Source of the DNA: Frankiaceae bacterium
GTDB taxonomy: Bacteria; Actinomycetota; Actinomycetes; BP-191
Length of the DNA stretch: 64,000 nt
Assembly (NCBI GenBank): GCA_035940575.1
Contig: DASZER010000016.1
Coordinates: forward strand, 18,258 to 82,257
Direction: 5' to 3'
The notes below the pieces were generated by a model. That model had not been told where the DNA came from and searched no databases. It saw nothing but the letters and a program-made list of their open reading frames with translations. A program made the translations under genes and the position numbers. This document shows positions 1,789 through 44,332 of this stretch, piece by piece. How positions within the stretch are numbered: position 1 is the first letter of the stretch; every line of letters starts with the position of its first letter.

Positions 1789-3042
1789 ATGACGACGGCC
1801 ACCACGCGCGTGTTCTGCGCGCGACTCTCGGGGCTCGTCGTGTTCGACCCCAACGGCGACCAGGTCGGCCGCGTCCGCGACGTCGTCGCGATCCTGCGCC
1901 TCGGCGGCCAGCCGCCGCGCGTGCTCGGCCTCGTGCTCGACGTGCAGCGGCGGCGGATCTTCGTGCCGATCCTGCGGGTGCGCTCGTTCGACGCGTCGCA
2001 GGTCGTCCTCGCGAGCGGGACGGTCTCGCTGCGCCGCTTCGAGCGCCGCGCCGAGGAGACGCTCGTCCTCCAGGACCTGCTCGACCGCCGCGTCGACGTG
2101 CTCGAGACCGGCGAGCAGGTCGTCGTCTACGACTGCGCGATGGAGCAGACGCGTACCGGCGACTGGCAGCTCACCCGCGTCGCCGTGCGCCGGCCGGGGC
2201 GCGGCGTTCGCAGGCGCGGCCACGAGCAGGAGCTGCGCTGGGACGAGGTCAGCGGCTTCGCCCTCACCGAGGACAACCAGGGCGCCGACAACCTGCTGGC
2301 GGCGTACGAGGGCCTGCGCCCCGCCGACCTCGCGAACGAGCTGCACAACCTCTCCGACAAGCGCCGCATCGAGGTCGCCGCGGCGCTCGACGACGAGCGG
2401 CTCGCGGACGTCCTGGAGGAGCTGCCCGAGGACGAGCAGGTCGAGATCATCGAGACCCTCGACGCCGAGCGCGCCGCCGACGTCCTCGAGGCGATGTCGC
2501 CCGACGACGCCGCCGACCTGCTCGCCGAGATGTCGGAGGCCGACGCCGCGCGCCTGCTGGAGCGGATGGAGCCCGACGAGGCGGAGCCGGTACGCCGCCT
2601 GCTCCTCTACGCCGACAACACGGCCGGCGGTCTCATGACGACCGAGCCGATCATCCTGCTGCCGAACGCCACCGTCGCCGAGGCGCTCGCGCACGTCCGC
2701 AACCCCGACCTCTCCCCCGCGCTCGCGTCGCAGGTCTACGTCTGCCGCGCGCCCACGGAGACGCCGACCGGACGCTTCCTCGGCATCTGCCACATCCAGC
2801 GGCTGCTCCGCGAGCCCCCGTCGGCGCTCGTGTCCTCGATCGTGGACACCGACCTCGACCCGCTCGGCGCCGACGCGTCGCTGCGCCAGGTCACGCAGCA
2901 CCTGGCGACGTACAACCTCACGGCGGTCCCGATCGTGGACGAGGGCCACCACCTGCTCGGCGCGGTCACGGTCGACGACGTGCTCGACCACCTCCTGCCC
3001 GAGAACTGGCGCGAGGAGGAGGTGGACGGTGGCGCGGGCTAG
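1789..3042 (+). CDS. MgtE N-terminal domain plus CBS-pair protein (soluble MgtE-like, no membrane domain)
   Basis: 417 aa. The acidic helical MgtE_N region (LEELPEDEQVEIIETLDAERAADVLEAMSPDDAADLLAEM) is followed by CBS-like segments. There is no transmembrane part. Confidence 0.75.
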   Translation: MTTATTRVFCARLSGLVVFDPNGDQVGRVRDVVAILRLGGQPPRVLGLVLDVQRRRIFVPILRVRSFDASQVVLASGTVSLRRFERRAEETLVLQDLLDRRVDVLETGEQVVVYDCAMEQTRTGDWQLTRVAVRRPGRGVRRRGHEQELRWDEVSGFALTEDNQGADNLLAAYEGLRPADLANELHNLSDKRRIEVAAALDDERLADVLEELPEDEQVEIIETLDAERAADVLEAMSPDDAADLLAEMSEADAARLLERMEPDEAEPVRRLLLYADNTAGGLMTTEPIILLPNATVAEALAHVRNPDLSPALASQVYVCRAPTETPTGRFLGICHIQRLLREPPSALVSSIVDTDLDPLGADASLRQVTQHLATYNLTAVPIVDEGHHLLGAVTVDDVLDHLLPENWREEEVDGGAG

Positions 3043-3586
3043 GGACCGGCTGGACCAGCCGCGCGTCCTGCGCCGGGGCCTGCCGCGCCCGCACTACGAC
3101 CCGGACGCGTTCGGGCGGTTCTCGGAGACGATCGCGCGGTTCATCGGGACCGCGCGGTTCCTCGTCATCCAGACGATCATCTGCCTGCTCTGGGTCGGCT
3201 ACAACGGCTACTTCGGGCTGCAGGCGCACCGCGCGAACGAGGAGTGCCGCGACCTGCGCCGCGCCAGCCCGGCCGCCGAGTGCCGCGACGACAGGGACGT
3301 GTTCGACCCGTACCCGTTCATCCTGCTGACGCTCGCGCTGTCGCTGCAGGCGGCGTACGCCGCGCCGCTGATCCTGCTCGCGCAGAACCGCCAGGCCGAC
3401 CGAGACCGGGTCTCGATGGAGGAGGACAGGGCGCAGTACGCGCGCTCCGTCGCGGACACCGAGTACCTCACCCGCGAGGTCGCGGCCGTCCGCCTCGCCC
3501 TGGGCGACGTCGCGACCCGCGACTTCCTGCGCTCCGAGCTCGCGCGCCTCGCCGAGGACCTCAAGGACGACGACAGCGGCGCGTAG
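3029..3586 (+). CDS. DUF1003 family membrane protein
   Basis: 185 aa with two TM helices and a conserved charged C-terminal coil. Its start overlaps the end of the preceding MgtE_N/CBS gene, and this pairing is common. Confidence 0.7.
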   Translation: MARARDRLDQPRVLRRGLPRPHYDPDAFGRFSETIARFIGTARFLVIQTIICLLWVGYNGYFGLQAHRANEECRDLRRASPAAECRDDRDVFDPYPFILLTLALSLQAAYAAPLILLAQNRQADRDRVSMEEDRAQYARSVADTEYLTREVAAVRLALGDVATRDFLRSELARLAEDLKDDDSGA

Positions 3587-3590
3587 CCGG

Positions 3591-4169
3591 CTAGCGCAGG
3601 CGCCAGGAGCCGTCGCCGAACGCGTCGTCCAGCGCCTGGTCCGCGATGCCCGCGACGGAGTGCCCGTACGCCGGCTCGCCCGCGTCGGCGAGCGCCGCGA
3701 AGTCGTAGAACAGCGAGCCCGTCGTGATCTGCGGCGGCAGCACGTCGACCGGGATCGACCACGTGATCGTGCTGCCGGTGACGGTCAGCGTGATGACGCT
3801 GTCGTAGACCTCGTCCGCGCACTCGGCCCACACCTCGCCCGGGACGGTGCCGCCGAGCGTCATGAGCAGCGCGCCCGGCGTGTACCTGAACCACACGACG
3901 CCGCAGTCGCGCACGACGGACGACAGCTCGTAGGTGTACGGCACGCCGTCCTTCGGCGGCGCGGCGAGCGTCATCGTCGCGACCAGGGCCTTGTCGTTGC
4001 CGCGGCCGCTGGTGCTCCACCTGGCGCTCACGATGTCGAGCTCGGCGGCGCCGGTGACGGCGTCGCCCTTCGGGTCGGTGATCTGCGGGCGGTTCGGCGA
4101 GGCGTACGCCGACGGCGCGAGCAGCGCGGTCGCGGCGGCGACGGCGGCGAGGAGCCGCGGTCGCGTCAC
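3591..4169 (-). CDS. Secreted protein, paralog A of a repeated ~200-aa family
   Basis: The GTG start at 4169 overlaps the stop of paralog B as GTGA. The signal peptide is LLAAVAAATALLAPSAYA. It has the family motifs PQITDPKGD, LDIVSARWS and TITWSIPV. The 333-aa track ORF is an upstream over-extension. Confidence 0.7.
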   Translation of the reverse strand: MTRPRLLAAVAAATALLAPSAYASPNRPQITDPKGDAVTGAAELDIVSARWSTSGRGNDKALVATMTLAAPPKDGVPYTYELSSVVRDCGVVWFRYTPGALLMTLGGTVPGEVWAECADEVYDSVITLTVTGSTITWSIPVDVLPPQITTGSLFYDFAALADAGEPAYGHSVAGIADQALDDAFGDGSWRLR

Positions 4170-4738
4170 GCCATCCGCCAGGAGCCGTCGCCCTGCGCGT
4201 AGTCGAGCGGCTCGTCGGCGATGCCGGCGACCGAGTAGCCGAAGATCGGCTCGCTCGCGTCGGCCAGCGCCTCGAACTTCGTGAACACCGCGCCCGGCCT
4301 GACCTGGGAGGGCAGCACCGCGACCGGCATCGACCACGTGATCGTGGTGCCCTTCACGGTCGTGGTGACGACGTCGTCGTAGATGCCGTCGCCGCAGGCG
4401 GCCCAGCCGGTGCTGACGTTGCCGTCCTGCCGCGCCGAGACGCTGCCCGGGTGGTAGGAGAACGACACCTCGCCGCAGTCGCGGACGTCCGCGCGGACGT
4501 GGTACGCGAACGGCACGCCGTCCTTCGGCGCCGCGGCGAGCGTCATCGTCACGACGAGCGCCTCGTCCGCGCCGCGACCGGCGGTGCTCCACCGCGCGCT
4601 GACGATGTCGAGCTCGGCCATCCCGCCGCGGACGTCGCCCTTGGCGTCGCGGACCTGGGGGCGGTCGGAGGCGCCGTACGCCGCAGGCGCGAGCAGCGCG
4701 GTCGCGGCCGCAACGGCCGCCACGAGTCGGAGTGCCAC
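4166..4738 (-). CDS. Secreted protein, paralog B
   Basis: GTG start at 4738 sits 2 nt after the stop of paralog C and is preceded by a GGAGGA ribosome-binding site. It has the signal peptide and the PQVRDAKGD, LDIVSARWST and TITWSMPV motifs. The 530-aa track ORF is over-extended. Confidence 0.7.
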   Translation of the reverse strand: MALRLVAAVAAATALLAPAAYGASDRPQVRDAKGDVRGGMAELDIVSARWSTAGRGADEALVVTMTLAAAPKDGVPFAYHVRADVRDCGEVSFSYHPGSVSARQDGNVSTGWAACGDGIYDDVVTTTVKGTTITWSMPVAVLPSQVRPGAVFTKFEALADASEPIFGYSVAGIADEPLDYAQGDGSWRMA

Positions 4739-4740
4739 GG

Positions 4741-5367
4741 TTAGCTCATCCTCCACGTGCCGTCGCCTACGCCGTTGTCGAACGACTGGCTCGCGCCCGA
4801 CGCCAGCGGGATGCCGAACACCGGGTCGCCCGCGTCGGCTGCGGCCGTGAAGTCGTAGAAGACCGAGCCCGTCCGGACCTCCGACGGCAGCGCCGCGACC
4901 GGCACCGACCACGTCATCGTGTTGCCCGCGACCGCGAACGTCACCTCCTCGACCAGCAGCGTCGAGCCCGTCGTGTCGGACGTGCCCGCGCCGCACTCGA
5001 GCCACATCGTCGCGGTCTGGTCGGCGTCGGAGATCGCGGGCTGGCCGAGCTCGTCGAGGTACGTCACGAGCGCGCCCGGCGAGTACTCGAAGATGACGGT
5101 GCCGCAGCCGCGCACCTGGGACTTGAGCTCGTACGCGAACGGCGCGTCCTTCATCGGCACGGCCGCGAGCGTCAGCGACGCGACGAGCCGCGCGCCCGCG
5201 CCGCGCCCGGCGGTGCTCCAGCGCGCGGAGACGATGTCGAGCGAGGCGACGCCGCCGCGCACGTCGCCCTTGGGGTCGGTGATCTGCGGGCGGCCGGTGG
5301 CCGCGCCCGCGGGGGTGGCCAGCACGGCGGTGGCGGCGGCGAGCGCCGCGACGAGACGGAGTCGCAT
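4741..5367 (-). CDS. Secreted protein, paralog C
   Basis: 208-aa ORF starting MRLRLVAALAAATAVLATPAGA (signal peptide). It has the PQITDPKGD, LDIVSARWST and TMTWSVPV motifs. Confidence 0.75.
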   Translation of the reverse strand: MRLRLVAALAAATAVLATPAGAATGRPQITDPKGDVRGGVASLDIVSARWSTAGRGAGARLVASLTLAAVPMKDAPFAYELKSQVRGCGTVIFEYSPGALVTYLDELGQPAISDADQTATMWLECGAGTSDTTGSTLLVEEVTFAVAGNTMTWSVPVAALPSEVRTGSVFYDFTAAADAGDPVFGIPLASGASQSFDNGVGDGTWRMS

Positions 5368-5403
5368 GGGGGCAGGGGCCTTTCGGGGGTGGTGGGGGTC
5401 GAG

Positions 5404-6030
5404 CTAGCGCAGGCGCCAGGTGCCGTCGCCGTACGCGCTGTCGAGCGACCCGCCCGCGATGGACTGCGGGGAGTGGCCGACGACGGGGTCGCCGACGTCG
5501 GCGATGGCGCTGAAGTCGTAGAACACCGAGCCGACCTCGATCCGGTCGGGCAGCGCCGAGACGGGGACGGACCAGGAGATGGTGTTGCCCGCCTGGACGA
5601 ACTGCAGCTCCTTGTAGAGCAGCGCCCTGCCGTCGGAGTCCTCGGCGCCGGAGCCGCACGCGGTCCACACCGTCGCGGTCGTGTCGCCGTCCGAGACCAG
5701 CGGGTGGTTGACGTCGTCCGCGCGCGTCATCACGGTGCCCGGCGTGTACTGGAACCACAGGGTCCCGCAGTCGCGCACCTGCGACTTCATGTCGTAGATG
5801 TACGGCACGTCCTTCTTCGGCGGGGCCGCGAGCGTCAGCGTCGCGACGAGGCGCATCGCGTCGCCCTTGCCCGTCGTGCTCCAGCGGGCGCTCACGATGT
5901 CGAGCTCGGCCATGCCGCCCTTGACGTCGCCCTTGGGGTCGCGGACCTGCGGGCGGTCGGTCGCGGCGTTGGCCGGCACCGCGAGAAGCAGGGTCGCGGC
6001 GGCCAGCGCGGGAACGAGTCGAAGTCGCAT
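5404..6030 (-). CDS. Secreted protein, paralog D
   Basis: ATG at 6030 is preceded by a GGGAGG ribosome-binding site. It begins MRLRLVPALAAATLLLAVPANA and has the same motif set (PQVRDPKGD, LDIVSARWST, ISWSVPV). Confidence 0.75.
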   Translation of the reverse strand: MRLRLVPALAAATLLLAVPANAATDRPQVRDPKGDVKGGMAELDIVSARWSTTGKGDAMRLVATLTLAAPPKKDVPYIYDMKSQVRDCGTLWFQYTPGTVMTRADDVNHPLVSDGDTTATVWTACGSGAEDSDGRALLYKELQFVQAGNTISWSVPVSALPDRIEVGSVFYDFSAIADVGDPVVGHSPQSIAGGSLDSAYGDGTWRLR

Positions 6031-6113
6031 CTGAGGGGCCTCCCTATGGGGTGGTACGGCATCCAAGAGCCCCGGGGACGGCGGGTGGTTCGCTCGTCCG
6101 TAGAATCGCCGCC

Positions 6114-6974
6114 ATGACCGTCGCGGCCGCGGAGCGCGGAACGGCGCAGTCCCGGCTGCGCTGGGAGCTGCTCGCCAACCTCGTCCGCAAGGACCTCAAG
6201 GTGAAGTACCAGAGCAGCGCGCTCGGCTTCATCTGGTCGCTCGCCACGCCGTTGCTGCTGCTGACCGTCTACTACCTCGTCTTCGGCTTCATCCTCCGCA
6301 ACGGCGTCCCGAACTTCGCGGTCTACCTGATGGCCGGCCTGCTGCCCTGGAACGCGTTCTCCACGGCCGCCGTCTACGGCTGCGGCTCCGTCGTCGCCAA
6401 CGCGAACCTCGTCAAGAAGGTCCGCTTCCCCACCTCGGTGCTGCCGCTGTCGGCGGTCGGCTACGCCGCCGTCCACTTCGTGCTGCAGATGGGCGTGTTC
6501 TTCGCGTTCCTCGCGCTGTTCCACCGCAAGGCGTTCGGGCCGCAGCTCGTCCTGCTGCTGCCGGCGACGCTCGTGCTGATCGTGTTCGCGAGCGGCGTCG
6601 CGATCCTCGTTGCCGCGCTGACCGTGCGCTACCGCGACGTGCAGCACCTCCTCGAGGTGCTGCTGCTCGCGTGGTTCTGGCTGAACCCCGTCATCTACGG
6701 CATGCAGCTCGTCCGCGCGCAGCTCCTCCCGCGCGGCGCGTACTGGGCGTACTTCCTCAACCCGATGGCCGGCGTCGTCACGGCGTACCAGCGCGCGCTC
6801 TACGTCACGCCCGACGTCCCGACGGTCGTCGGGCCGCAGCAGGTGCTGGCGTACCACGGCTACGGCGGCTACCTGCTCCAGCTCGGCGTCGGCATGGCCG
6901 TCTCGCTGGTGACGCTCGCGGTCGCCGTCGTGGTGTTCAAGCGGATGCGCGGCGACTTCGCCGAGGAGCTCTAG
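6114..6974 (+). CDS. wzm: ABC-2 type polysaccharide exporter permease (Wzm/TagG/RfbD-like)
   Basis: Six TM helices and the KDLKVKYQSSALGFIWS ABC-2 signature. It is divergent from the paralog array and is followed by the ATPase with a TAGTG overlap. Confidence 0.8.
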   Translation: MTVAAAERGTAQSRLRWELLANLVRKDLKVKYQSSALGFIWSLATPLLLLTVYYLVFGFILRNGVPNFAVYLMAGLLPWNAFSTAAVYGCGSVVANANLVKKVRFPTSVLPLSAVGYAAVHFVLQMGVFFAFLALFHRKAFGPQLVLLLPATLVLIVFASGVAILVAALTVRYRDVQHLLEVLLLAWFWLNPVIYGMQLVRAQLLPRGAYWAYFLNPMAGVVTAYQRALYVTPDVPTVVGPQQVLAYHGYGGYLLQLGVGMAVSLVTLAVAVVVFKRMRGDFAEEL

Positions 6975-8176
6975 TGGGTCAGCCCGCGATCAGCGCGCGG
7001 GAGGTCAGCAAGCGGTTCCTCATCCACCGCAAGCGCGCGACGAGCCTCAAGGAACGCTTCATCAACCGCGGCGCGCAGGCCGAGGAGTTCTGGGCGGTCC
7101 GCGACCTCTCCCTCGACGTCGAGCCCGGCGAGACCGTCGGCCTCGTCGGCGCCAACGGCTCCGGCAAGTCGACGACGTTGAAGCTGCTCGCCGGCATCCT
7201 CCAGCCGACTTCGGGCACGGTCACCGTCAACGGCCGCATCGCGTCGCTGCTGGAGCTCGGCGCCGGCTTCAACGGCGAGCTCTCCGGCCGCGACAACGTC
7301 TACCTCAACGCCTCGCTGCTCGGCCTGTCGCGCAAGGAGGTGGACAGGCACTTCGACGACATCGTGGCGTTCAGCGAGCTGGCGCCGTTCATCGACAACC
7401 AGGTCAAGAACTACTCCTCGGGCATGTACGTCCGCCTCGGCTTCGCCGTCGCCGTGCACATCGACCCCGACATCCTGCTGGTGGACGAGGTGCTCGCGGT
7501 CGGCGACGAGGCGTTCCAGCGCAAGTGCCTCGACAAGATCGAGCAGTTCCAGCGCGACGGGCGCACGATCCTGTTCGTCTCGCACTCGCTGGAGCTGGTC
7601 GAGCAGATCTGCTCGCGCTCGGTCGTCCTCGACCACGGGCGCGTCCGCTACATCGGCGAGCCCGAGTTCGCGACCGGCACGCTGCGCGGCATCCTCGGCA
7701 CCGACAAGCCGCGCGAGACGGCGGTTCCCACGATCGTGGACGACCCGCGCGGCGGCGCGTACATCCACGGCGCGACCGTCAGCGACCGCCCGGGCGGCGA
7801 GCCGCGCAGCGACTTCTTCGGCGGCGAGCCGCTGTCGGTGCGCGTCGAGGTCGAGGTGCTCGACGGCACCGACCCGATCGGCGGCCAGGTGACGCTGATC
7901 GTGCTCGGCGCGGGCGACATCCCGATCTGGGTGATGGGCCAGGACGGCCGGGGCGTCGTCCCGCCGGTGCCGGGGCGCTACCACGTCGACTTCGTCGTGC
8001 CCGAGCTGCCGCCGGTCGTCGGGTCGTTCATCTTCGCGGTGTCGGTCAACGACCCCGACACCGACGACGTCCTCGCCCACGCGCGCTTCTACGAGACGCT
8101 GCACTTCAAGGGCAACACCAACCTCGGCATCGTGGACGTCCGCTACACGGCGGAGACGTGGCGGGCCGACGGGTGA
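6974..8176 (+). CDS. wzt: ABC transporter ATP-binding protein (Wzt/TagH/RfbE-like) with a C-terminal substrate-binding extension
   Basis: Walker A GANGSGKST, signature YSSGMYVRLGFAV, Walker B ILLVDE. A ~170-aa C-terminal extension resembles a Wzt_C carbohydrate-binding domain. The GTG start overlaps the permease stop. Confidence 0.85.
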   Translation: MGQPAISAREVSKRFLIHRKRATSLKERFINRGAQAEEFWAVRDLSLDVEPGETVGLVGANGSGKSTTLKLLAGILQPTSGTVTVNGRIASLLELGAGFNGELSGRDNVYLNASLLGLSRKEVDRHFDDIVAFSELAPFIDNQVKNYSSGMYVRLGFAVAVHIDPDILLVDEVLAVGDEAFQRKCLDKIEQFQRDGRTILFVSHSLELVEQICSRSVVLDHGRVRYIGEPEFATGTLRGILGTDKPRETAVPTIVDDPRGGAYIHGATVSDRPGGEPRSDFFGGEPLSVRVEVEVLDGTDPIGGQVTLIVLGAGDIPIWVMGQDGRGVVPPVPGRYHVDFVVPELPPVVGSFIFAVSVNDPDTDDVLAHARFYETLHFKGNTNLGIVDVRYTAETWRADG

Positions 8177-9453
8177 CCGCCCGCGCGACCGTCGTCGTCG
8201 TGAACTGGAACGGCGGCCACCTGCTCCCGCCCTGCCTCGACGCGCTGCGCGCGCAGGACGTCCAGGACTTCGAGACCGTCGTCGTGGACAACGCCTCCTC
8301 CGACGGCTCGGTCGAGATGCTGCGCCGCGACTACCCCGAGGTCCGCGTCGTCGAGACCGGCGCCAACCTCGGCTTCGCCGGCGGCAACAACGCGGCGCTG
8401 CGGACGTTCGCGACGCCCTACGCGGTGCTTCTCAACAACGACGCGGTCCCCGAGCCCTCGTGGCTGCGCAACACGCTCGACGCCTGCGCCGACGGCGTCG
8501 TCGTGACGCCGAAGATCGTGTTCCTGCCGCGCTTCGTGCGCCTCACGCTGACGACCGACGGGTTCGTCCCCGGCGGCGCGGACCCGCGCGAGCTCGGCGT
8601 GCGCATCCACGGCGTCCAGGTGGACGGCGCTCCCGCTCGTGCGCTCTGGGAGCGGCTGACGTACGGCGACGAGGGCGGCTACACGTGGACCCGCCCGAGC
8701 GGCGAGTGGCTGCTGCCGGTGGGGCGTTCGGTCACGCTCACCTGGGCCGCCGAGCGCGACAAGGACGTGACGATCGGGTGGCCCGGCGGCTCGGCGACGC
8801 TGCGCGTGACGGAGGCGGGGGGCGAGGCGACGTTCGCGCTGCCCGAGGACGTCGAGACCGTGGACGTCGTGAACAACGTCGGCGGCATCGTGACGACGCT
8901 GGGCTACGGCGCCGACCGCGGCTTCCAGGAGGTCGACGAGGGCCAGTACGACAAGCCGGAGGACGTGTTCACGTTCTGCGGCAACGGCGCGGCGTTCCCC
9001 CGCTCGGTGATCGAGAAGGTCGGGGTCTTCGACGACGACTTCTTCCTCTACTACGAGGACACCGACCTGTCGTGGCGTGTCCGCGCGGCCGGCTACGACA
9101 TCCGCTACGAGCCGACCGCCGTGCTGCGCCACCACCACAGCGCGAGCAGCGGCGAGGCGTCGTACGTCTTCCGGTTCCACGTCGACCGCAACCGGCTGCT
9201 GATGCTGACCAAGAACGCCACGTGGCGCCTCGCGCTGCCGCAGGTGCTCCGCTACCCGGTGACGACCGCGTCGATCGCGGTGCGCGCGGTGCGGACCCGC
9301 AACCGCGCGGCTCTCGCCGACACCAAGCGCCGCCTCCGCGTGATGGCGTCGTACCTGCGCCTGCTGCCCCGCATGCTCGCGCGCCGTCGCGCGGTCGAGC
9401 GCGTCGTGTCCCGGCGCGAGCTCGAGCGCCGGTGGCTGGTCGAGCACCGGTGA
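8173..9453 (+). CDS. Family 2 glycosyltransferase
   Basis: Starts TVVVVNWNGGHLLPPCLDALRAQDVQDFETVVVDNASSDGS and has the YYEDTDLSWR (DxD/ED) region. GTG start overlaps the wzt stop as GTGA. The 642-aa track ORF is over-extended. Confidence 0.8.
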   Translation: MTARATVVVVNWNGGHLLPPCLDALRAQDVQDFETVVVDNASSDGSVEMLRRDYPEVRVVETGANLGFAGGNNAALRTFATPYAVLLNNDAVPEPSWLRNTLDACADGVVVTPKIVFLPRFVRLTLTTDGFVPGGADPRELGVRIHGVQVDGAPARALWERLTYGDEGGYTWTRPSGEWLLPVGRSVTLTWAAERDKDVTIGWPGGSATLRVTEAGGEATFALPEDVETVDVVNNVGGIVTTLGYGADRGFQEVDEGQYDKPEDVFTFCGNGAAFPRSVIEKVGVFDDDFFLYYEDTDLSWRVRAAGYDIRYEPTAVLRHHHSASSGEASYVFRFHVDRNRLLMLTKNATWRLALPQVLRYPVTTASIAVRAVRTRNRAALADTKRRLRVMASYLRLLPRMLARRRAVERVVSRRELERRWLVEHR

Positions 9454-10508
9454 GGCTGGGGCTCGACGCGACGCCGCTGCTCGGGCAGCGCAGCGGCGTG
9501 GGGACGTACGTCGCCGGGCTGCTCTCCGGACTACGTCAGGTGACGCAGCCTCCCGAGGTCGTGCTGACGGCGTTCACCTGGCGCGGCACCGAAGGGCTGC
9601 CTGACGGGTACGCCCGGGGGCGACGCTTCCCCGCGCGCATCCTGCAGGAGGCGTGGATGCGCGCCGACGCGCCGCCGGTCGAGTGGCTGTCGGGGCGGGT
9701 GGACGTGTTCCACGCCACCAACTACGTGCTGCCGCCGTCACGCAAGGCGGCGGGCGTGCTGTCGGTGCACGACCTGTCGTACGAGCACCACGCCGACACG
9801 GTCACGGCAGCCACGCTGCGCTACCGGACGCTCGTGCCCCGCGCGCTACGTCGCGGGGCGTACGTCCTGGCGCTGACGGAGACCGTCGCGGGCGAGGTGC
9901 GCGACCACTACGACCTGCCCGCCGACCGGGTGGGGGTGGCGCGGCCGGGCGTGGACGAGGAGTGGTTCGCCCCCGCGGCGCGCCCGGCAGGGCTGCCTGA
10001 GGAGTACGTGCTGTTCGTCGGCAACCGCGAGCCGCGCAAGAACCTCCCCGTCCTCCTCGACGCGATGGCGCGGCTGTGGCCGAAGGTGCCGCCGCTCGTC
10101 CTCGTCGGCCCTTCGGGCTGGGGCCCCGCGCTCGACGCGTCGGGGCTGCCGCCTGAGGCGGTCGTGATCCCCGGCTACCTGTCGGAGGAGGCGCTGCGCG
10201 GCGCCGTCGCCGGGGCGAGCGCGCTGGCGTTCCCCTCGCGGTACGAGGGGTTCGGGCTGCCGCCGGTGGAGGCGTTCGCCTGCGGGACGCCGGTCGTGGC
10301 GAGCGACATCCCGGTGCTGCGCGAGGTGCTCGGGCCGCACGCGACATACGCCGCCGCGGGCGACGCGGAGGCGCTGGCGGCCGCGATCGCGGAGGCGCTG
10401 GACGCGCCGCCGACGTCCGCGGAGGCGCGGCGGGAGCACGCGCGGCAGTACACGTGGAGGCGTTGCGCGGCGGAGGCGATGGATGCGTACCTGCGAGCCC
10501 TACGATGA
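9450..10508 (+). CDS. Family 4 (GT-B) glycosyltransferase
   Basis: C-terminal GT1/GT4 signature (FPSRYEGFGLPPVEAFACGTPVV). GTG start overlaps the GT2 stop as GTGA. Confidence 0.8.
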   Translation: MRLGLDATPLLGQRSGVGTYVAGLLSGLRQVTQPPEVVLTAFTWRGTEGLPDGYARGRRFPARILQEAWMRADAPPVEWLSGRVDVFHATNYVLPPSRKAAGVLSVHDLSYEHHADTVTAATLRYRTLVPRALRRGAYVLALTETVAGEVRDHYDLPADRVGVARPGVDEEWFAPAARPAGLPEEYVLFVGNREPRKNLPVLLDAMARLWPKVPPLVLVGPSGWGPALDASGLPPEAVVIPGYLSEEALRGAVAGASALAFPSRYEGFGLPPVEAFACGTPVVASDIPVLREVLGPHATYAAAGDAEALAAAIAEALDAPPTSAEARREHARQYTWRRCAAEAMDAYLRALR

Positions 10509-10534: not shown

Positions 10535-12079
10535 ATGCGTAGGGCGGCGGTCTACAACCGCTTCTGGCACTCCATGGGCGGCGGCGAGCGCCACTCCGGC
10601 AAGATCGCCGAGGTGCTGGCCGCCGACGGGTGGCACGTCGACCTGATCGGCCACACCGACGTCGGCCGCGACAGCCTCGCCGACCACCTCGGGCTCGACC
10701 TCTCGGGTACCACGCTGCGGGTCGTCCCCGACAAGGGCGACGCGGCGCTGGTCGAGCTGTCGGAGGAGTACGACCTGTTCGTCAACGCGACGTTCATGTC
10801 GCGGCTCGCCCCGCGCGCCAAGCGCAACGTCTACCTCTGCTACTTCCCGACGCCGTTCGACTACAACGTCGAGCGCTGGCGCCAGGTCGTGCTCCGCCAC
10901 GTCGCCCCGCGCATCGCGCGCGGGCTGCCCGACCACCTGACGCACGGGCTCGGCTGGTACCCGCCCGAGGGCGGGCTGCGGCGGTCGTGGGTCTGGTCGC
11001 AGGGCGACGGCGTCGTCGTGATCCCGAGGGGCAGGCGCAAGAAGGTCTCGATGCTGCTCGGGCGCCCCGGTGGCGACCCGGTCGAGCTGACGTTGCGCGA
11101 CGGCGAGGGCACGGTGCTCGCGCGGGTGACCGTCACGCCCGACTTCCGCAAGCACACGTTCGACCTCGGCGCGGGCACCGACGGCATGGAGCTGCACTTC
11201 GTGTCGGAGACGTTCACCCCGGCGGTGAACGACAACCGCGACCTCGGCGTGGCCGTCTCGCGGCTGCGGCTCGTCGACGGCGACGGCGGGATGCGGTGGT
11301 ACGTCGTGCACCGGCTGCCGTGGCTCACGCTCGACCCGACGGACCTGTCGTTCCTGGAGTCGTACGACGAGGTGCTGGCGAACTCCGAGTACACGCGCGG
11401 CTGGATACAGAAGCTCTGGAAGCGCGACGCGGCGGTGCTGTTCCCGCCGATCCGCATCAACGACCTCGAGCCGTCGGCGACCCGCACGACGTCGATCGTC
11501 ACGGTCGGCCGGTTCTTCAGGCCGGGGCTCGGGCACGCCAAGCGGCAGCTCGAGATGGTGCGGATGTTCGGGGAGATGTACCGCGCGGGCGGGCTCGAGG
11601 GCTGGACGCTGCACGTCGTCGGCGGGTGCGAGCCGTCGCAGGTGCCGTACCTCGAGGAGGTCCGCGCGGCCGGCGCGGGGCTGCCCGTCGAGCTGCACCC
11701 GAACGCGCCCCGCTCGGAGGTCGAGCGGCTGCTGGACGAGGCCTCGGTGTTCTGGTCGGCGACGGGCTTCGGCGAGAACGAGGACAAGGCTCCGTGGGCG
11801 ATGGAGCACTTCGGCATGACGACCGTCGAGGCGATGGCGGGCGGCTGCGTGCCCGTTGTCATCGACCGCGCGGGGCAGCGCGAGATCGTGCGGCACGACG
11901 TGGACGGCTTCCGCTGGTCCACCCCGGCCGAGCTCGCGCAGTACACGCGGATGATCGCCTCCGACGACGCCCTGCGCGCGCGGCTCGCGGGCAGTGCCGT
12001 CAAGCGCGCGGCGGCGTTCTCCGAGGACGCGTTCGCGGAGCGCTGGCGTGAGATCGCGAAGGACCTCGGCCTCGGCTAG
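10535..12079 (+). CDS. Family 4 glycosyltransferase (large, 514 aa)
   Basis: C-terminal GT4 motif (EHFGMTTVEAMAGGCVPVVIDRAGQREIV). It is the last gene of the wzm-wzt-GT operon. Confidence 0.8.
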   Translation: MRRAAVYNRFWHSMGGGERHSGKIAEVLAADGWHVDLIGHTDVGRDSLADHLGLDLSGTTLRVVPDKGDAALVELSEEYDLFVNATFMSRLAPRAKRNVYLCYFPTPFDYNVERWRQVVLRHVAPRIARGLPDHLTHGLGWYPPEGGLRRSWVWSQGDGVVVIPRGRRKKVSMLLGRPGGDPVELTLRDGEGTVLARVTVTPDFRKHTFDLGAGTDGMELHFVSETFTPAVNDNRDLGVAVSRLRLVDGDGGMRWYVVHRLPWLTLDPTDLSFLESYDEVLANSEYTRGWIQKLWKRDAAVLFPPIRINDLEPSATRTTSIVTVGRFFRPGLGHAKRQLEMVRMFGEMYRAGGLEGWTLHVVGGCEPSQVPYLEEVRAAGAGLPVELHPNAPRSEVERLLDEASVFWSATGFGENEDKAPWAMEHFGMTTVEAMAGGCVPVVIDRAGQREIVRHDVDGFRWSTPAELAQYTRMIASDDALRARLAGSAVKRAAAFSEDAFAERWREIAKDLGLG

Positions 12080-13126: not shown

Positions 13127-15934
13127 CTACGGCACCGAGGGGCCGAGGACGGTCGACTTCGTCAGGTCGTCGGCGACGACGGGGATCGTCGGGACGGCGA
13201 CGAGGCCGAGGCGCTTGGTCGGGCCCGCAGGAACGGAGCGGCGTACGCCGTCCTGCACGAGCCAGCGCGAGCCGTCGGGCAGCCGCACCCACGCGCCGTC
13301 GGCGGGCGCGGCGAGCGGGCCGACGGGCAGCGCGAGGTCGGCGGCCGTGGCGGCCAGGGCGGGGCGCCCGAGGTAGGTGGAGACCAGCGACGCGGCCAGC
13401 GGCCGGCGCACGCCCGCGTCCAGCACCCACACCGACGTGCCGTCGGTGACGAGCGAGCCGGCCGGGTGGCGGGCGGCGTTCGACAGCGCCGCGCCCACGG
13501 GGAGCGAGCCGAAGTCGGACGGGCCGAGCGCGGGCAGCGACGCGGCGCCGTAGCCGAGCGCCTTGGCGGTCACGACGACGAGGCGGCCGTTGTCGACGAC
13601 GCGGACGACGCCGTCGGAGCCGCGCGCGGCGAGGCCGTTCGGCGGGACCCAGCGGGCGGTGACGAGCGAGTTCAGCTCGGTGCCGGCGGGCGCGACGGGC
13701 ACGCGCGGGTCGAGCGCGACGAGCGACGCGTCGATGACGCGGCGGGTGAGGCCGGTGATCTCGACGTACGACGCCGTCCCGGTGCGCAGCAGCGTTCCGG
13801 ACGGGTGCCTGTCCCCCACCGGCTCCCCGAGCGGCAGCGCGGCGAGGTCTTCGGCGGTCGCGACGACTGCGGACGTGAGGCCGAGGGGTGCCGTGCCGAC
13901 CGGGCGCCAGGCGCCGTTCGAGACGACGACGAACGACCCGTCGGCGCGCTTGAGCACGACGCCCTCCGGCGGGGCCAACGGCGCGCCCACCGGCAGCGCG
14001 AGGTCGGCCGGCTTGGCAGCGGCGACGGCGAGCGCCTTGGACCACGCGGTACGCGATACGGGCGACGTGAACGGCCGCCGCACGCCGGACTCGATCCGCC
14101 ACGCGCCCTCGGCGGTGGTGACGACGGTGCCGTCGGGGTGCGCGTCGTCGCGCGTCCACGGCGTGCCGACAGGGACGACGTCGAGAACGGCGTCGGGCAG
14201 CAGGCGGGCGGCGGAAAGGCCGAGCGCCGTGGCGACCGCCGACGTCACGGGACGGCGGGCGCCGTCCACGACGAGCCACGCGGCGCCGGCCGCGTTGCGG
14301 ACGTACATGCCGTCGCGCGGGCCGCTGAACGGCGCGCCGAGCGCCGCCTTCTGGCCCGGGTACGCGGGCAGCGGCGGCGCCTGCCGGATCGCCGACAGCA
14401 ACGCCGCCGACGCCGGGTACAGCCGCCCGCCCTCGACCACGGCGAACGGCACGCCGGACGAGCCGAGCGTGGCGCCGTTCGGGAGCGGGGAGACGACGTC
14501 GACCCGCTGCTTCCACGCGTACGCGCGGGTCGCGGCGTTCCACGACGACAGCGTCAGCTCGTAGCGGTCGGGGACGACGAGCGCGCCCGACGCGTCGCGC
14601 AGGTCCCACGTCGCGGCGAGCGCCGTGGACGTCGAGGTGCCCTTGTACGTGCGGAGGACGGTGCCGCGCGCGTCCCGGACGTCGAGCTGCCAGGACTGCG
14701 TGGCGGGCACGCCGGAGCGCACGGTGACGCCGGACGTGAGGTACATCGGCGTCGGGGTCGACACCGTCGGCGTGTACAGCGACGCGCCCATGAGGCTCTT
14801 GATCGCGGTACGGATCGACGGCAGCCGGTTGTACGTCTGCGTGCCCGGGCAGGCGGTGAGGCCGGCGTCACGGTGGCCGGAGACGTTGTTGAAGCGGACC
14901 TGCGTGCCGTTCTCGTACTTGGAGCCGCCGCGCGAGGTGAGGACGGTCGTCGCGAGCGGGTTCACGAAGTGCAGGGAGAACTTCCACGCGAACGTCCTCT
15001 GCACCGCCGCGAGCTGCGCGGACGAGGGCGCGACGGAGGAGTAGTTGCCGAGCAGCGAGACGCCGAACGTGTCGGTGTTGAACCCACCCGTGTGCGCGCC
15101 GATCACCGGGCGGTCGACGCCGCCGTAGCGGCCCTCGAACACGCGGCCGTACTTGTCGACGAGGAAGTTGTAGCCGATGTCGCTCCACCCGCGGCTCTGC
15201 GTGTGGAACGCGTAGACGCTGCGCACCATCGCCGCCGCCTGCGACGACGAGTACGAGTTCGACGTGTCGGTGTGGTGGACGAAGCCCATCCTGATGGTGT
15301 CCGAGTACGACGGCGTGCCGTCGCGCAGCGACTCGTCGGCGCCCCACTGCGCGCGCGTGACGATCGGCGGGCGGCCGACCGACGCCTCGGCGGACGCGCC
15401 GAAGACCGGCGAACGTCCCACGGCCGCGTCGGCGTCCGAACGTCCCGGGTCCACGAGCGACACCCGCACGTCGCGCGGCGCGTGGCCGCCCGCGACGGCG
15501 AGCCGTACCTGCCAGCCGTCCGAGGGGCCCGCGTACCAGGGCGCGGTGCCCGCGCGCTGACGGGCCGCCTCGGCGGCGTCGGGCTCGTGGTCGGGGTCGG
15601 CGTCGAGCGCGTGCCAGCCGGTCCAGCGGCCGTCCTGGCGGACCCGCGCCTCGACCCTCACGTCGCCGAGGCCGCGGTCGTGCGCCCACGTGACGCCGAG
15701 CGCCTCGAACCGTGCCGACCCGTTCTCCGCCGTGACCGCGAGCGGCCGGGTGGTGGAGGGCCCGGCGAAGCCGGCGCCGCGGCGTACGGCGGCGAGGTCG
15801 ACGCCGCGTACGGCGTGCTCCCGGACGGTGGGCGCGACGGGCCGCGGGCGGGCGGCGGGACGCGACATCACGGGCAGTGCCAGCGCGACCGGGGTCACGG
15901 ACAGGACGACGGCGGTCTTCAGCAGGCGGCGCAC
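13127..15934 (-). CDS. N-acetylmuramoyl-L-alanine amidase (Amidase_2/PGRP domain) with a long C-terminal repeat region
   Basis: 935 aa with a signal peptide. The catalytic region is RAQWGADESL, FVHHTDTSNSY, GWSDIGYNFLVDKYGRVFEGR and GAHTGGFNTDTFGVSLLGNY. It is followed by at least six degenerate ~60-aa repeats (VRRP..S...LG......DLALPVG.PL). Confidence 0.8.
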   Translation of the reverse strand: MRRLLKTAVVLSVTPVALALPVMSRPAARPRPVAPTVREHAVRGVDLAAVRRGAGFAGPSTTRPLAVTAENGSARFEALGVTWAHDRGLGDVRVEARVRQDGRWTGWHALDADPDHEPDAAEAARQRAGTAPWYAGPSDGWQVRLAVAGGHAPRDVRVSLVDPGRSDADAAVGRSPVFGASAEASVGRPPIVTRAQWGADESLRDGTPSYSDTIRMGFVHHTDTSNSYSSSQAAAMVRSVYAFHTQSRGWSDIGYNFLVDKYGRVFEGRYGGVDRPVIGAHTGGFNTDTFGVSLLGNYSSVAPSSAQLAAVQRTFAWKFSLHFVNPLATTVLTSRGGSKYENGTQVRFNNVSGHRDAGLTACPGTQTYNRLPSIRTAIKSLMGASLYTPTVSTPTPMYLTSGVTVRSGVPATQSWQLDVRDARGTVLRTYKGTSTSTALAATWDLRDASGALVVPDRYELTLSSWNAATRAYAWKQRVDVVSPLPNGATLGSSGVPFAVVEGGRLYPASAALLSAIRQAPPLPAYPGQKAALGAPFSGPRDGMYVRNAAGAAWLVVDGARRPVTSAVATALGLSAARLLPDAVLDVVPVGTPWTRDDAHPDGTVVTTAEGAWRIESGVRRPFTSPVSRTAWSKALAVAAAKPADLALPVGAPLAPPEGVVLKRADGSFVVVSNGAWRPVGTAPLGLTSAVVATAEDLAALPLGEPVGDRHPSGTLLRTGTASYVEITGLTRRVIDASLVALDPRVPVAPAGTELNSLVTARWVPPNGLAARGSDGVVRVVDNGRLVVVTAKALGYGAASLPALGPSDFGSLPVGAALSNAARHPAGSLVTDGTSVWVLDAGVRRPLAASLVSTYLGRPALAATAADLALPVGPLAAPADGAWVRLPDGSRWLVQDGVRRSVPAGPTKRLGLVAVPTIPVVADDLTKSTVLGPSVP

Positions 15935-16886: not shown

Positions 16887-16891
16887 CGAGG

Positions 16892-17951: not shown

Positions 17952-18587
17952 CTACTTGCCGACGGCCACGCAGGACGCCGAGCCGGCGACGTAGGTCTTG
18001 CCGACCGCGTCGTCCGCCATCTGCAGCGAGCCGCCGCCGGTGGTGGCGCCGGTGGCGGGGTTCGGGACGTACGCGCCGAGGACCCAGTACGTCGTCATCG
18101 TCAGGCCGAGCAGCTTGGTGCTCGGCTTCGGGTTGCCGTACGTCGTCCACGCGCCGACGGGGGCGGAGATGCGGATCTCCTTCTTCGCCGTGTCGTAGAC
18201 GCCGGTCGCCGAGCCGAGCGAGCGGTGGATCGAGCCGTCGACCCAGCCGTAGTTGAACGCCTCGGTGGTCGGCGTGACGCTGTAGCTCAGGTAGATCGGC
18301 GTCGCGGCGCCCGCCGGCGTGAAGTCGAAGTAGTAGCCCTGGCCGGTCGGGGCGTCGGAGTTGCTCTTCGACACGTCGGCGAGGCGGAAGACCGCAGTGA
18401 CCGTCTTCGCGTTCGACGCGAGGTCGCCCGAGACGATGTCGAGCGGCGCGCCGTACTCCGAGTCGCCGGTCGCGTCGGTGATCGTCTTGCACGGCGGCGG
18501 GGGCGGCTTGCGTACGGCGGCGTCGGCGATGCCCACGGTGGACGCGGTGAGCGCGAGCACCGTGAGGGCGAGGACAGGTCGCTGCAT
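17952..18587 (-). CDS. Secreted protein, divergent member (E) of the repeated ~200-aa family
   Basis: ATG at 18587 is preceded by an AGGAGC ribosome-binding site. The signal peptide is MQRPVLALTVLALTASTVGIADA. It then has TITDATGDS and PLDIVSGDL (the family N-terminal motif) and a C-terminal VAVGK. Confidence 0.6.
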   Translation of the reverse strand: MQRPVLALTVLALTASTVGIADAAVRKPPPPPCKTITDATGDSEYGAPLDIVSGDLASNAKTVTAVFRLADVSKSNSDAPTGQGYYFDFTPAGAATPIYLSYSVTPTTEAFNYGWVDGSIHRSLGSATGVYDTAKKEIRISAPVGAWTTYGNPKPSTKLLGLTMTTYWVLGAYVPNPATGATTGGGSLQMADDAVGKTYVAGSASCVAVGK

Positions 18588-18677
18588 GGAGGGGCTCCTA
18601 CGAGTTTCCGAGTGTTGGGAGCCGACTTCGACGGTCCAGCGCCACGTCCTGCTTCCGCTCTCGCTACGTTGCTCCAC

Positions 18678-19496: not shown

Positions 19497-19500
19497 GCGC

Positions 19501-37417: not shown

Positions 37418-38035
37418 CTAGCTGCCGACCTTGTAGACCGCGTCGGTCTCCGCGCGGTCCACGGACGGGGCGGTGAGCGCGACCTCGTTGCCGCGGGCGT
37501 CGGCGCCCAGGCCGCCCCACACGGCGCCGGCCTTGAGGCCCGCGGCCTTGAACGCCTTGACCGGGATGGTCCACGTGATCGTGCTGCCGTCGATCTTCGC
37601 CGACACGTCCGTGTAGGCGTAGCCCGTCGTGCCGTCGTCGCAGGTACGGACCGCGGCGCCGTTGAGCGAGGCGTCGGGGTTGATGCTCTGCTCGGTCCAG
37701 AACTCGCAGCCGCCGATGTCGCCGACCACGCGGTAGATGCCGATCGTCGGCGCCGCCGCGAGCTTGAGGCTGACGAGGACCTTGGTCGCGGCGCTGCCTG
37801 CCTTGTCCGTGACGATCTTCACCTCGCGGATGTCGAACGCGTCGACCTGGCCGGGGGTCGCGGTGCCGCCCGACGGCCCGGCGCCGAGGCCGGGGTCGAG
37901 CGCGTTGGCGTCGCCGGCGAGGTCGGTGAACACGAGCGGCTTCGGCGCGGCCGGCTTCTTGGCTGCGGCGTTGGCGACGCCCGGCACGGCGAGCGCGACG
38001 GCGAGGGTCGCGGCGGCGGCGGTACGGATCTTCAC
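37418..38035 (-). CDS. Secreted protein, divergent member (F) of the repeated ~200-aa family
   Basis: GTG start at 38035 (VKIRTAAAATLAVALAVPGVANA signal peptide). FTDLAGDANA, DAFDIREVKIV and STITWTIPV are family motifs. Confidence 0.6.
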   Translation of the reverse strand: MKIRTAAAATLAVALAVPGVANAAAKKPAAPKPLVFTDLAGDANALDPGLGAGPSGGTATPGQVDAFDIREVKIVTDKAGSAATKVLVSLKLAAAPTIGIYRVVGDIGGCEFWTEQSINPDASLNGAAVRTCDDGTTGYAYTDVSAKIDGSTITWTIPVKAFKAAGLKAGAVWGGLGADARGNEVALTAPSVDRAETDAVYKVGS

Positions 38036-39356: not shown

Positions 39357-40046
39357 CTACGCGAGCGTGAACGAGTCGCCGTCCTTCGCCGAGTTGTCGA
39401 CGACGCCGTTGGCGGCGCCGCAGGTGCGGCCGAGCTCGGGCGTGTCGTCCGGCGTGCAGGTGTTGTAGTCCTGCAGCTCGCGGACCTCGAACCACAGGTC
39501 CGTGATCTTCGTGCCGGCCTTCACGCCGGAGTCCGCCGGGATCGCGGACATCGGGACGGTCCAGGTGATCGTGTTGTCCTTGATGACCGGCGCGGGGATC
39601 GCGGTGAGGCGGATCGTCTCGTCGATGCAGTCGTCGCGCAGCGCGGACTGCGGGATCTGGTCGTCGCTGCCGGGGTTGGTGTAGTAGACGACGCCGAAGA
39701 TGCCGCACTTCGGCGTCGTGCCGAGCATGCGGTAGACGAGCGCGGTCGGGTCGGGCGGCGTCGGCGGGCCCGACAGCGTCGTCGTGACCGTGAAGCCGGT
39801 GACCGTCGTGACGGTCTTGCCCTTGACCTTCTTCGTCGTCTTCGTCGTCTGCCACAGCACCGACGTGACGTCGGCGTACGCCTGGGTGAGCGGCACCGTG
39901 GTGTTGTCGCGGGTGGCCTCGTGGTTGACGTTGGCCGTGAAGTTCGCGTCACCGGAGGGGTCGGTGACCTGGGGTGCCGGCGCGGCACCGGCGTGCGGGG
40001 CGAGCAGCGCCAGCGCGAGCGCGGGCGCGAGAACGAGACGGCGCAT
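39357..40046 (-). CDS. Secreted protein, divergent member (G) of the repeated ~200-aa family
   Basis: ATG at 40046 is preceded by a strong AGGAGGGGG ribosome-binding site. Signal peptide MRRLVLAPALALALLAPHAGA. PQVTDPSGDANF and NTITWTVPMSAIP are family motifs. Confidence 0.6.
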   Translation of the reverse strand: MRRLVLAPALALALLAPHAGAAPAPQVTDPSGDANFTANVNHEATRDNTTVPLTQAYADVTSVLWQTTKTTKKVKGKTVTTVTGFTVTTTLSGPPTPPDPTALVYRMLGTTPKCGIFGVVYYTNPGSDDQIPQSALRDDCIDETIRLTAIPAPVIKDNTITWTVPMSAIPADSGVKAGTKITDLWFEVRELQDYNTCTPDDTPELGRTCGAANGVVDNSAKDGDSFTLA

Positions 40047-40542: not shown

Positions 40543-40842
40543 CTAGGTCGCGTCCGGGTCGTAGGGCGGCCGCTCTCCCGCGGGGAGGGCGGCCGTCGCC
40601 GCCTTCGGCACGTCCGGCTCGTCGTCGTCGAAGAACCGCCGCGGGTCGAGCCTGCGGATCTCGTCCACGTCCACGCCGAACTCGTCGCGCAGGTCCTTCG
40701 AGACGCCGGTCGCCATGCGGCGCAGCTCGCGGACGAGCCTGCCCGCGTCGGCGGCGACCTTGGGCAGGCGCTCGGGGCCGAAGATCAGCATGCCGAGGAC
40801 GAACAGCACCGCGAGCTCGGCCCACCCGAGGTTGTTGAACAA
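40543..40842 (-). CDS. tatB: Twin-arginine translocase component TatA/TatB family (position and size suggest tatB)
   Basis: MFNNLGWAELAVLFVLGMLIFGPERLPKVA is the Tat N-terminal TM plus amphipathic helix. It lies downstream of htrA, as in the mycobacterial sigE-rseA-htrA-tatB cluster. Confidence 0.75.
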   Translation of the reverse strand: MFNNLGWAELAVLFVLGMLIFGPERLPKVAADAGRLVRELRRMATGVSKDLRDEFGVDVDEIRRLDPRRFFDDDEPDVPKAATAALPAGERPPYDPDAT

Positions 40843-40854
40843 CGCGGCTCCCGC

Positions 40855-42042: not shown

Positions 42043-42050
42043 CGGTCTCC

Positions 42051-44190: not shown

Positions 44191-44332
44191 CTGCTCCAAC
44201 GGACGTTCGCGACAGCGGGGTGCTCCGGACGGCGGACGGCGCCGCCGGGATCGGGTCGGGTTCGGTCCCGGCGGCGTCCGCCATCCTCTGCAACGGCCCG
44301 GGCGCCCGCCGCGTTCCCGTAGGGTTGGCCGC

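Follow-up and report, generated by a model that had tools for sequence, protein, structure and literature searches.

What are the four similar exported proteins that a Frankiaceae bacterium encodes side by side, back to back with a polysaccharide exporter, and what might they do outside the cell? The question is raised by a stretch of 64,000 nucleotides (assembly GCA_035940575.1, contig DASZER010000016.1, positions 18,258 to 82,257 of the forward strand), hereafter the window, in which an initial annotation made from the sequence alone had singled out four consecutive minus-strand genes, called here D, C, B and A in the order of their transcription (Table 1). Our analyses make it very probable that these genes belong to a new exported DOMON-like family, which, as far as sampled, is confined to uncultured Mycobacteriales/Frankiales actinobacteria. 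That the superfamily is tied to the cell-wall glycopolymer pathway seems to us an evenly balanced proposition, and any specific mechanism deserves less confidence. The kind of fold is already known; the sequence family, its signature, its fast-evolving tandem arrays and its position in front of rmlB-rmlD are undescribed in the libraries and literature that we searched.

The local G+C content is 70-78 %, and spurious open reading frames (ORFs) are abundant in such DNA. A frame analysis based on G+C at third codon positions (GC3) selects exactly the frames of A-D, and a Shine-Dalgarno-like purine run lies upstream of each start; these two signals, together with the homologs and a confidently predicted fold, rule out that the four are spurious GC-rich ORFs. 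Each product consists of an N-terminal Sec-type signal peptide, recognised by eye, and one domain of ~165 aa, and Sec export of the four products would be expected from these N-termini. All the motifs of the skeleton initially described are present (in D, a member of what we call subfamily I, the signal peptide is accompanied by DPKGD, LDIVSARWST, a Cys pair and TISWSVPV..LP), with the correction that there are two invariant cysteines (C89 and C117 of A) and not a single one. The proteins align end to end, the other three being 62, 54 and 55 % identical to A over their full length, with an overall range of 51-62 % and pairwise identities of 51-59 % for the mature parts, and each matches the family profile with an E-value of 1e-58 to 1e-63. 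At the DNA level they are 62-77 % identical without long identical tracts, which implies that the duplications are old and not homogenised and rules out both a recent duplication and recent gene conversion. With identities of 50-60 % and a GC3 of ~97 %, the synonymous sites of the paralogs must be saturated or constrained.

D-C-B-A is probably a four-gene operon of old paralogs. It had been described as packed with 4-nt overlaps, which is true of the B/A junction (GTGA, the GTG of A lying on the TGA of B), the sole overlap of this kind in the array, and not of the C/B and D/C junctions, which are gaps of 2 and 36 nt, respectively. The coordinates do confirm that the GTG of B comes 2 nt past the TAA of C and that A starts on the stop of B, and translational coupling is plausible at both places. 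Upstream of D, the wzm-proximal half of the spacer that separates it from the exporter genes (6085-6113) is almost identical in the window and in three related loci (L005, L015 and L017), and a TAGAAT hexamer within this conserved half ends 7 nt before the wzm ATG. The sequence suggests that the wzm transcript may be leaderless or carry a very short leader, and the 83-bp spacer may have promoter roles. A scan of the region with the sigma-70 consensus detected no promoter-like site, and a terminator-like match inside gene D, on the opposite strand, was taken as chance. At the far end, 4 nt separate the stop codons of A and of the DUF1003 gene convergent with it (window 3586-3591), which is itself preceded by an MgtE_N/CBS gene; no terminator-like structure was found in this stop-to-stop gap, and transcripts from either side would read into the opposite gene.

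The family is larger than this array. A word-indexed search of 5.8 billion proteins returned 29 clusters, and an exhaustive profile search of 1.84 billion representatives yielded 429 matches at E ≤ 1e-3, of which 259 also passed E ≤ 1e-10; almost all are single-domain proteins of 180-230 aa. Wherever the source gives an annotation it is ‘hypothetical protein’, and the metagenome-assembled genomes (MAGs) involved are labelled Frankiaceae, Frankia sp. or Mycobacteriales. The window holds further copies as well: a 118-member profile run against its six frames identified three more minus-strand members, missed by the initial annotation, which we call E, F and G. In gene E, 17 aa are inserted after DPSGD and the C-terminus has two additional cysteines. 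G, which we place in a second subfamily, has a signal peptide, C-x4-D-x2-GD, LDIVS and a Cys near each end; it is followed on its strand by rmlB, whose start comes 88 nt after the G stop. The nearest database relatives of A, B, C and D are 71, 64, 58 and 63 % identical to them, and that of G 86 %; the database copies of the genes themselves, from a Frankiaceae MAG, bear the locus tags VGX28_03740-03755 (the array) and VGX28_03810 (G). Among species-representative genomes, a scan with subfamily II found 21 loci, all in MAGs (Mycobacteriales, Frankiales, Frankiaceae or Actinomycetota), and a scan with the A1 alignment found no relative.

That the family was not recognised initially agrees with all the searches of known families. 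Pfam gave nothing for A-D at E ≤ 10 and no match for E, F and G, NCBIfam matched none of A-G, giving noise only for A-D, and neither PADLOC nor PHROGs matched any of A-G at E ≤ 0.1. No Pfam family was common to two or more of the 118 members, 0/118 of which matched the DOMON, CBM9, EB_dh or Glucodextran_C models at E ≤ 1, and sequence searches of the PDB with the family profiles, with G alone and with a 626-aa related protein from locus L003 returned nothing meaningful. In the literature we found no paper describing this family, and a query joining DOMON and LCP returned only an author-name artefact.

Two subfamilies can be distinguished, and their comparison reveals what is common to both. 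Among 118 family members, D32, G35, D36, D45, C89, C117, P166 and D181, in the numbering of A, are each conserved in at least 92 % of the sequences, the pair C89 and C117 being an addition of subfamily I. DxxGD directly follows the signal peptide in 158/172 members, and 161/172 have exactly two cysteines in the mature part. The N-termini of A-G and of the aligned members read M-R-x-R, then an Ala/Leu-rich stretch and A23 (92 % conserved), before the mature DPxGD. A lipobox-like pattern occurs in 6/172 members and LPXTG in 0/172, so that lipoproteins and sortase substrates are ruled out for want of their defining residues. Two positions are commonly aromatic among the 118 members, Y80 (80 %) and W137 (71 %, the sole common Trp), and W51 is aromatic only in the wzm-linked clade; no Met (start codon aside), His or Lys is conserved at ≥ 70 % in this set. 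The variable stretch corresponds to residues 97-131, around the second Cys, where mean column identity falls to 0.30, against 0.57 elsewhere, and where insertions of 10 and 8 columns are found. Subfamily II unites G and its relatives, including a 196-aa protein and the two-domain 626-aa protein of L003 and a 376-aa protein of L009; the two larger ones (L003 11364-13934 and L009 8639-9769, both on the plus strand) are exported proteins with one or two domains of this type, and the 376-aa protein also shows faint Pfam matches to Big/Ig-like domains. The subfamily II cysteines, one just before D-x-x-G-D and the other near the C-terminus, differ from the pair of subfamily I; in G they are C33 and C206. 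Despite this difference, hhalign aligns both subfamilies over 183 columns with 98 % probability (E 1e-13) and pairs D32, D36, D45 and D181 of A with D38, D42, D50 and D192 of G, four positions at which subfamily II varies little or not at all. Since the four Asp align across both subfamilies while the Cys pairs differ, this acidic tetrad appears as the hallmark of the superfamily.

Structure prediction and structural comparison, proposed earlier as a way to place the proteins, gave a DOMON-like sandwich, a fold that is not new. The AlphaFold model of A, from a 29-sequence alignment, has a predicted local distance difference test (pLDDT) score of 88.9 and a predicted template modelling (pTM) score of 0.83; it comprises 10 strands of at least three residues plus a short N-terminal bridge (10-11 strands) and only short helical turns. 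The model of G (pLDDT 82) has 10 strands in the same order as A. Structural matches reached moderate scores: 9.2 for glucodextranase (1ulv, with a root-mean-square deviation (rmsd) of 11 A and the aligned 1ulv domain unspecified), 7.9 for ethylbenzene dehydrogenase gamma (2ivf_C), 7.7 for Sas6 (7uwu), 7.6 for NxrC (7b04_C), 7.5 for the putative carbohydrate-binding protein 4jpq (BACUNI_03838), 6.8 for both dopamine beta-hydroxylase and CBM9 (1i82) and 6.6 for the cytochrome domain of cellobiose dehydrogenase (1d7c). The DOMON fold is an immunoglobulin (Ig)-like sandwich; it has 10-11 strands and a pocket in which a ligand is bound. Its examples in dopamine beta-hydroxylase, cellobiose dehydrogenase and ethylbenzene dehydrogenase are related to one another and, more distantly, to CBM9; the cellobiose dehydrogenase domain binds haem and CBM9 sugar (PMC4846438). 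Glucodextran_C belongs to the DOMON_like superfamily, is CBM9-like and probably recognises alpha-glucan chains (PMC10074034). We joined NxrC, 4jpq and Sas6 to this group by resemblance only. Assignment of the domain to a DOMON-like/CBM9/Glucodextran_C-type beta-sandwich is thus reasonable and of moderate strength, as Foldseek found no match in the PDB at E ≤ 1e-3 and antibody V domains with similar scores are interleaved among the structural matches. Against viral structures, Foldseek likewise gave nothing at E ≤ 1e-3.

The divergent neighbour of the array is, as initially stated, a polysaccharide ABC exporter; it is of the Wzm/Wzt type, with Pfam matches to ABC2_membrane and ABC_tran, and is followed by glycosyltransferase genes. 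Comparison with related lineages shows how differently the two sides of this locus evolve. The order permease, four family genes, DUF1003 recurs in L005/L006; L017/L018 have the permease, two family genes and DUF1003, and L015 has GT2-wzt-wzm and at least two family genes. Over these four lineages the flanks remain 86-93 % identical (88 % for DUF1003 against the L005 copy, 86-93 % for the permease), whereas the best pairs of array genes are D and L005 gene 1, its positional ortholog, at 64 %, and C and L005 gene 2 at 54 %, all the rest being at ≤ 45 %. Neighbour joining puts A and B in a clade by themselves and L005 genes 3 and 4 in another one with P0016 and P0017; C clusters with P0013 and the clade of L005 gene 2. 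With a gene number that also varies from 2 (L017) to 4 (the window and L005), the array evolves by gain, loss and rapid divergence within a conserved frame. This confirms, together with the DNA identities given above, the earlier impression of an old and diversifying array.

A second setting, that of G, connects the family with genes of the dTDP-rhamnose type and with those for LCP ligases. In 8/21 loci of the subfamily II scan (L019, L021, L022, L023, L025, L026, L028 and L029), rmlB is immediately preceded, on its own strand, by one to three family genes, the arrangement that G shows in the window; all eight except L021 have rmlD after rmlB. Farther upstream, rmlA was detected in L019, L025, L026 and L028, and an LCP gene in L019, L021, L022, L025, L026 and L028 (not in L023 or L029). 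Taken together, LCP genes flank family genes in L019, L021, L022 and L024-L028. Among the 75 genes nearest to family genes, we counted 14 of the RmlB/RmlD type, seven LCP + LytR_C, three ABC-2 permeases, two ABC ATPases and two of the RmlA type. LCP-LytR_C proteins are wall glycopolymer ligases (PMC11481543). The G-type protein is 81 % identical to that of the window in L019 and 37-41 % in the other seven rmlB loci; since the linkage with rml and LCP genes is found in lineages so distant, it is stronger evidence than the synteny with wzm/wzt. Between rmlA and G, the window (18669-20769) and its nearest relative, L019 (7782-9838), also contain genes for an AAC(3)-type aminoglycoside N-acetyltransferase and a DUF5122 beta-propeller; in L025 and L026 the family genes come within ~90 nt of rmlA, which leaves no room for them.

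When both subfamily profiles were run over 39 loci (the 21 of the scan and those fetched earlier), tandem sets of two to four family genes proved common, some of them mixing both subfamilies. The expectation that relatives would be found in tandem and beside wzm/wzt thus held in part: tandem sets are frequent and the exporter genes accompany the close relatives (the window, L005/L006, L015 and L017, with L025 carrying them 8 kb downstream), but wzm/wzt are absent at L001, L003, L007, L008, L009, L011 and L013, and the genes of the more distant subfamily I members occur singly or in pairs, in a variety of surroundings. At L003, for example, subfamily I genes lie between guaB and guaA together with subfamily II proteins and a subtilisin (Peptidase_S8), and another subfamily I member directly follows a BNR-repeat protein. 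Genes for BNR/Asp-box (Sortilin-like) propellers near members on unrelated contigs (L013 3846-5420, L001 12721-14127 and L009 12386-15334) may represent a second recurring neighbour. In L016 (1775-4161, minus strand), a two-gene family array adjoins a YD/RHS-repeat protein of at least 620 aa that runs off the contig, with a 171-aa ORF downstream; the latter two may be a toxin/immunity pair.

What could such proteins do? The reading that we prefer, to which we give even chances, is that they are exported glycan-binding proteins, stabilised by calcium and tied to the wall glycopolymer pathway. A single transcript, started in the 83-bp region common to wzm and the array, would carry D, C, B and A, with C coupled to B and B to A in translation, and the four products, once exported, would fold into a disulphide-locked sandwich in which the Asp cluster binds calcium. 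The variable loops would bind carbohydrate, most likely a rhamnose-containing wall polysaccharide made and exported by the adjoining genes, and the proteins might either be held non-covalently at the wall, as a binding or coating component, or help to handle the polymer outside the membrane. The separate paralogs would provide different binding specificities or surfaces.

Several observations weigh against this interpretation. The adjacency to wzm/wzt is confined to close relatives, with permeases 86-93 % identical, and is for that reason weak evidence on its own. Other subfamily I members occur in unrelated contexts (TetR/SDR, guaB-guaA, GGDEF, MFS), and in the window itself E and F sit among sigE-htrA-tatB-mrp housekeeping genes. 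The 118 members have no family-wide aromatic platform for sugar binding. A structural C89-C117 disulphide and a calcium site formed by the four Asp are both proposed from residue conservation only, the signal peptides were assigned by eye, and every family member stems from a metagenome assembly.

A different explanation, unlikely in our opinion, would see in these proteins variable surface or coat proteins that change the exposed surface, for evasion of phages or predators or for receptor masking, without a specific wall-polymer ligand, their linkage with polysaccharide genes reflecting a shared envelope regulon. In its favour are an array that diverges far faster than its flanks and varies between two and four copies, the tandem multiplicity in other lineages (up to four copies in L020 and L038), the hypervariable and insertion-rich residues 97-131 and an Ig-like fold with many antibody V domains among its structural matches. 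The G-type proteins fit this picture poorly, being well conserved (81-86 % in near relatives) at a fixed site before rmlB in many lineages, so that they look like housekeeping proteins, and the conservation of the four Asp suggests a site kept for binding or for a metal rather than a mere scaffold. In addition, no wall-anchoring signal was found in the 172 members, and A-G matched no defence-system or phage family in PADLOC and PHROGs.

The same linkage to export and ligase genes could alternatively mean that the Wzm/Wzt exporter or the LCP ligases have in these proteins dedicated extracytoplasmic subunits, which would form a physical complex with them, receive the lipid-linked polymer and pass it on for attachment, a possibility that we regard as quite improbable. 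The starts of D and wzm are 83 bp apart, with a spacer that is conserved in four lineages; G-type genes come immediately before rmlB-rmlD, most of these loci having a divergent LCP gene on the upstream side; and in L025, wzm/wzt are found 8 kb from the family genes on the downstream side. Yet the wzm-linked lineages are close relatives, whose synteny is explained by descent, and many members are found far from exporter or LCP genes. The proteins lack a membrane anchor, and genes that evolve fast and vary in copy number would be unusual for a core machine subunit.

Some contexts recall proteolysis. In L003, two members and the related-domain proteins of 626 and 196 aa precede the Peptidase_S8 gene, E is two genes upstream of htrA, with tatB between them, and an SSI-family inhibitor gene lies 6 kb from the L001 member. 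That the family consists of protease-related factors (inhibitors, pro-domain-like chaperones or substrates) working with secreted or envelope peptidases is nevertheless very unlikely, because the 75 neighbours counted show no recurrent peptidase gene, the sole sequence match to an inhibitor family is noise (NF009716, E 0.17) and the structural matches are sandwiches that bind ligands, unlike known inhibitor folds. Finally, the idea that they are haem-b-binding DOMON-type cytochromes carrying electrons outside the membrane, like ethylbenzene dehydrogenase gamma, NxrC or the cellobiose dehydrogenase cytochrome domain, is hardly tenable and we reject it, as the 118 members conserve no Met, His or Lys of the axial-ligand type, their near-invariant polar residues being the four Asp, no redox partner gene recurs in the neighbourhoods and Pfam EB_dh and DOMON do not match.

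Returning to the glycan-binding interpretation, it can be extended, as a long shot, to the whole superfamily, which would then be an unseen class of extracytoplasmic wall-glycopolymer biogenesis factors in non-mycolate Mycobacteriales/Frankiales. G-type proteins would bind a rhamnose-containing polymer or linker and hand it to the LCP ligases, A-D-type proteins would be specificity variants tracking polymer change or phage pressure, and together they would form a variable set of lectins co-evolving with the cell's own surface glycan.

Table 1. Positions of the family genes and of the main neighbouring features in the window.
Feature	Position	Strand	Details
Gene D	5404..6030	minus	ATG 6030, stop 5404; 208 aa; first in the array; Shine-Dalgarno GGGAGG 8 nt before the start
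Gene C	4741..5367	minus	ATG 5367, stop 4741; 208 aa
Gene B	4166..4738	minus	GTG 4738, stop 4166; 190 aa; GGAGGA within the 3' end of C
Gene A	3591..4169	minus	GTG 4169, stop 3591; 192 aa; last gene of the array
Gene E	39357..40046	minus	profile E 3e-32; 229 aa; diverged subfamily I; between mrp/apbC and tatB
Gene F	37418..38035	minus	profile E 2e-24; 205 aa, GTG start; diverged subfamily I; between yceI and mrp/apbC
Gene G	17952..18587	minus	profile E 3e-6, N-terminal part only; 211 aa; subfamily II
Divergent intergenic region D/wzm	6031..6113		83 bp
wzm-like ABC-2 permease	6114-6974	plus	Pfam ABC2_membrane; ATG 6114 most likely start
wzt-like ABC ATPase	6974-8176	plus	Pfam ABC_tran
GT2 glycosyltransferase	8173-9453	plus	downstream of wzt
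GT4 glycosyltransferase	9450-10508	plus	downstream of wzt
GT1/GT4-like glycosyltransferase	10535-12079	plus	downstream of wzt
DUF1003 membrane protein gene	3029..3586	plus	convergent with A; conserved far boundary of the array
rmlD	16014-16931	minus	downstream of rmlB
rmlB-like NDP-sugar 4,6-dehydratase	16892-17863	minus	downstream of G
rmlA-like nucleotidyltransferase	20845-21909	minus	
LCP + LytR_C ligase genes (two)	22064-23512 and 23509-25314	plus	

The wider window is a cell-envelope region, with a 935-aa amidase, rmlD/rmlB/rmlA, the two LCP ligase genes and a series of sigE-like, RseB-like, htrA and tatB genes followed by mrp. The 935-aa protein (13127-15934, minus strand), encoded between the glycosyltransferase cluster and rmlD, has Amidase_2 (N-acetylmuramoyl-L-alanine amidase) as its sole Pfam match, at residues 212-364. 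The envelope-stress block (40543-44901, minus strand) comprises a sigma-70 ECF-like gene (43618-44901), a 170-aa ORF (43109-43621), a MucB/RseB-like gene (42051-43112), htrA (40855-42042) and tatB (40543-40842); a MucB/RseB-type protein was unexpected in an actinobacterium. Two further plus-strand genes encode a 776-aa protein (33748-36078) that joins MshEN, a T2SSE secretion/pilus ATPase, a double zinc ribbon and a C-terminal response-regulator receiver in an unusual fusion, and a large, presumably exported 978-aa protein (52578-55514), whose signal peptide is clear and for which Pfam gives nothing at E ≤ 1e-5.

The synthesis of actinobacterial wall glycopolymers, their export by Wzm/Wzt and their attachment by LCP proteins are only partly understood, a point made for the Streptomyces LCP-LytR_C ligase CglA (PMC11481543). 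G in front of rmlB-rmlD and the diversifying array at the exporter locus are candidates either for an extracellular step that is missing from this picture or for a layer of wall-associated proteins. The new sequence family, with its two subfamilies, four-Asp signature and DOMON-like fold, could enter the domain databases, where it would give an annotation to several hundred ‘hypothetical’ proteins. The practical impact will be modest unless a function is shown, the hosts being uncultured and the family taxonomically narrow.

Among known systems, the Glucodextran_C domain of glucodextranase 1ulv is, like the proteins studied here, an extracellular actinobacterial beta-sandwich in a carbohydrate setting, and Glucodextran_C domains may likewise start with a DPxGD-type motif. 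They differ in that there is no similarity at the level of hidden Markov models (0/118 members at E ≤ 1), that the structural match has the large rmsd given above and that Glucodextran_C is an appendage of large glycoside hydrolases whereas A-D stand alone. From the haem DOMON domains (2ivf_C, 7b04_C and 1d7c) the array family is set apart by the want of a conserved haem axial ligand, of redox partners and of a sequence match. In CBM9 of Thermotoga maritima xylanase 10A (1i82), the sugar is held between two Trp, a pair that the array family does not have family-wide, and carbohydrate-binding modules are normally fused to enzymes, unlike these free single-domain proteins encoded in tandem. SLH domains are non-covalent binders of secondary cell-wall polysaccharide in Gram-positive bacteria; such modules have no structural or sequence relation with the array family and are usually attached to a passenger domain. 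The comparison with them is functional and binding by the array proteins is hypothetical, but, like SLH-type modules, these proteins would have their role at a wall glycopolymer, one whose synthesis genes adjoin their own.

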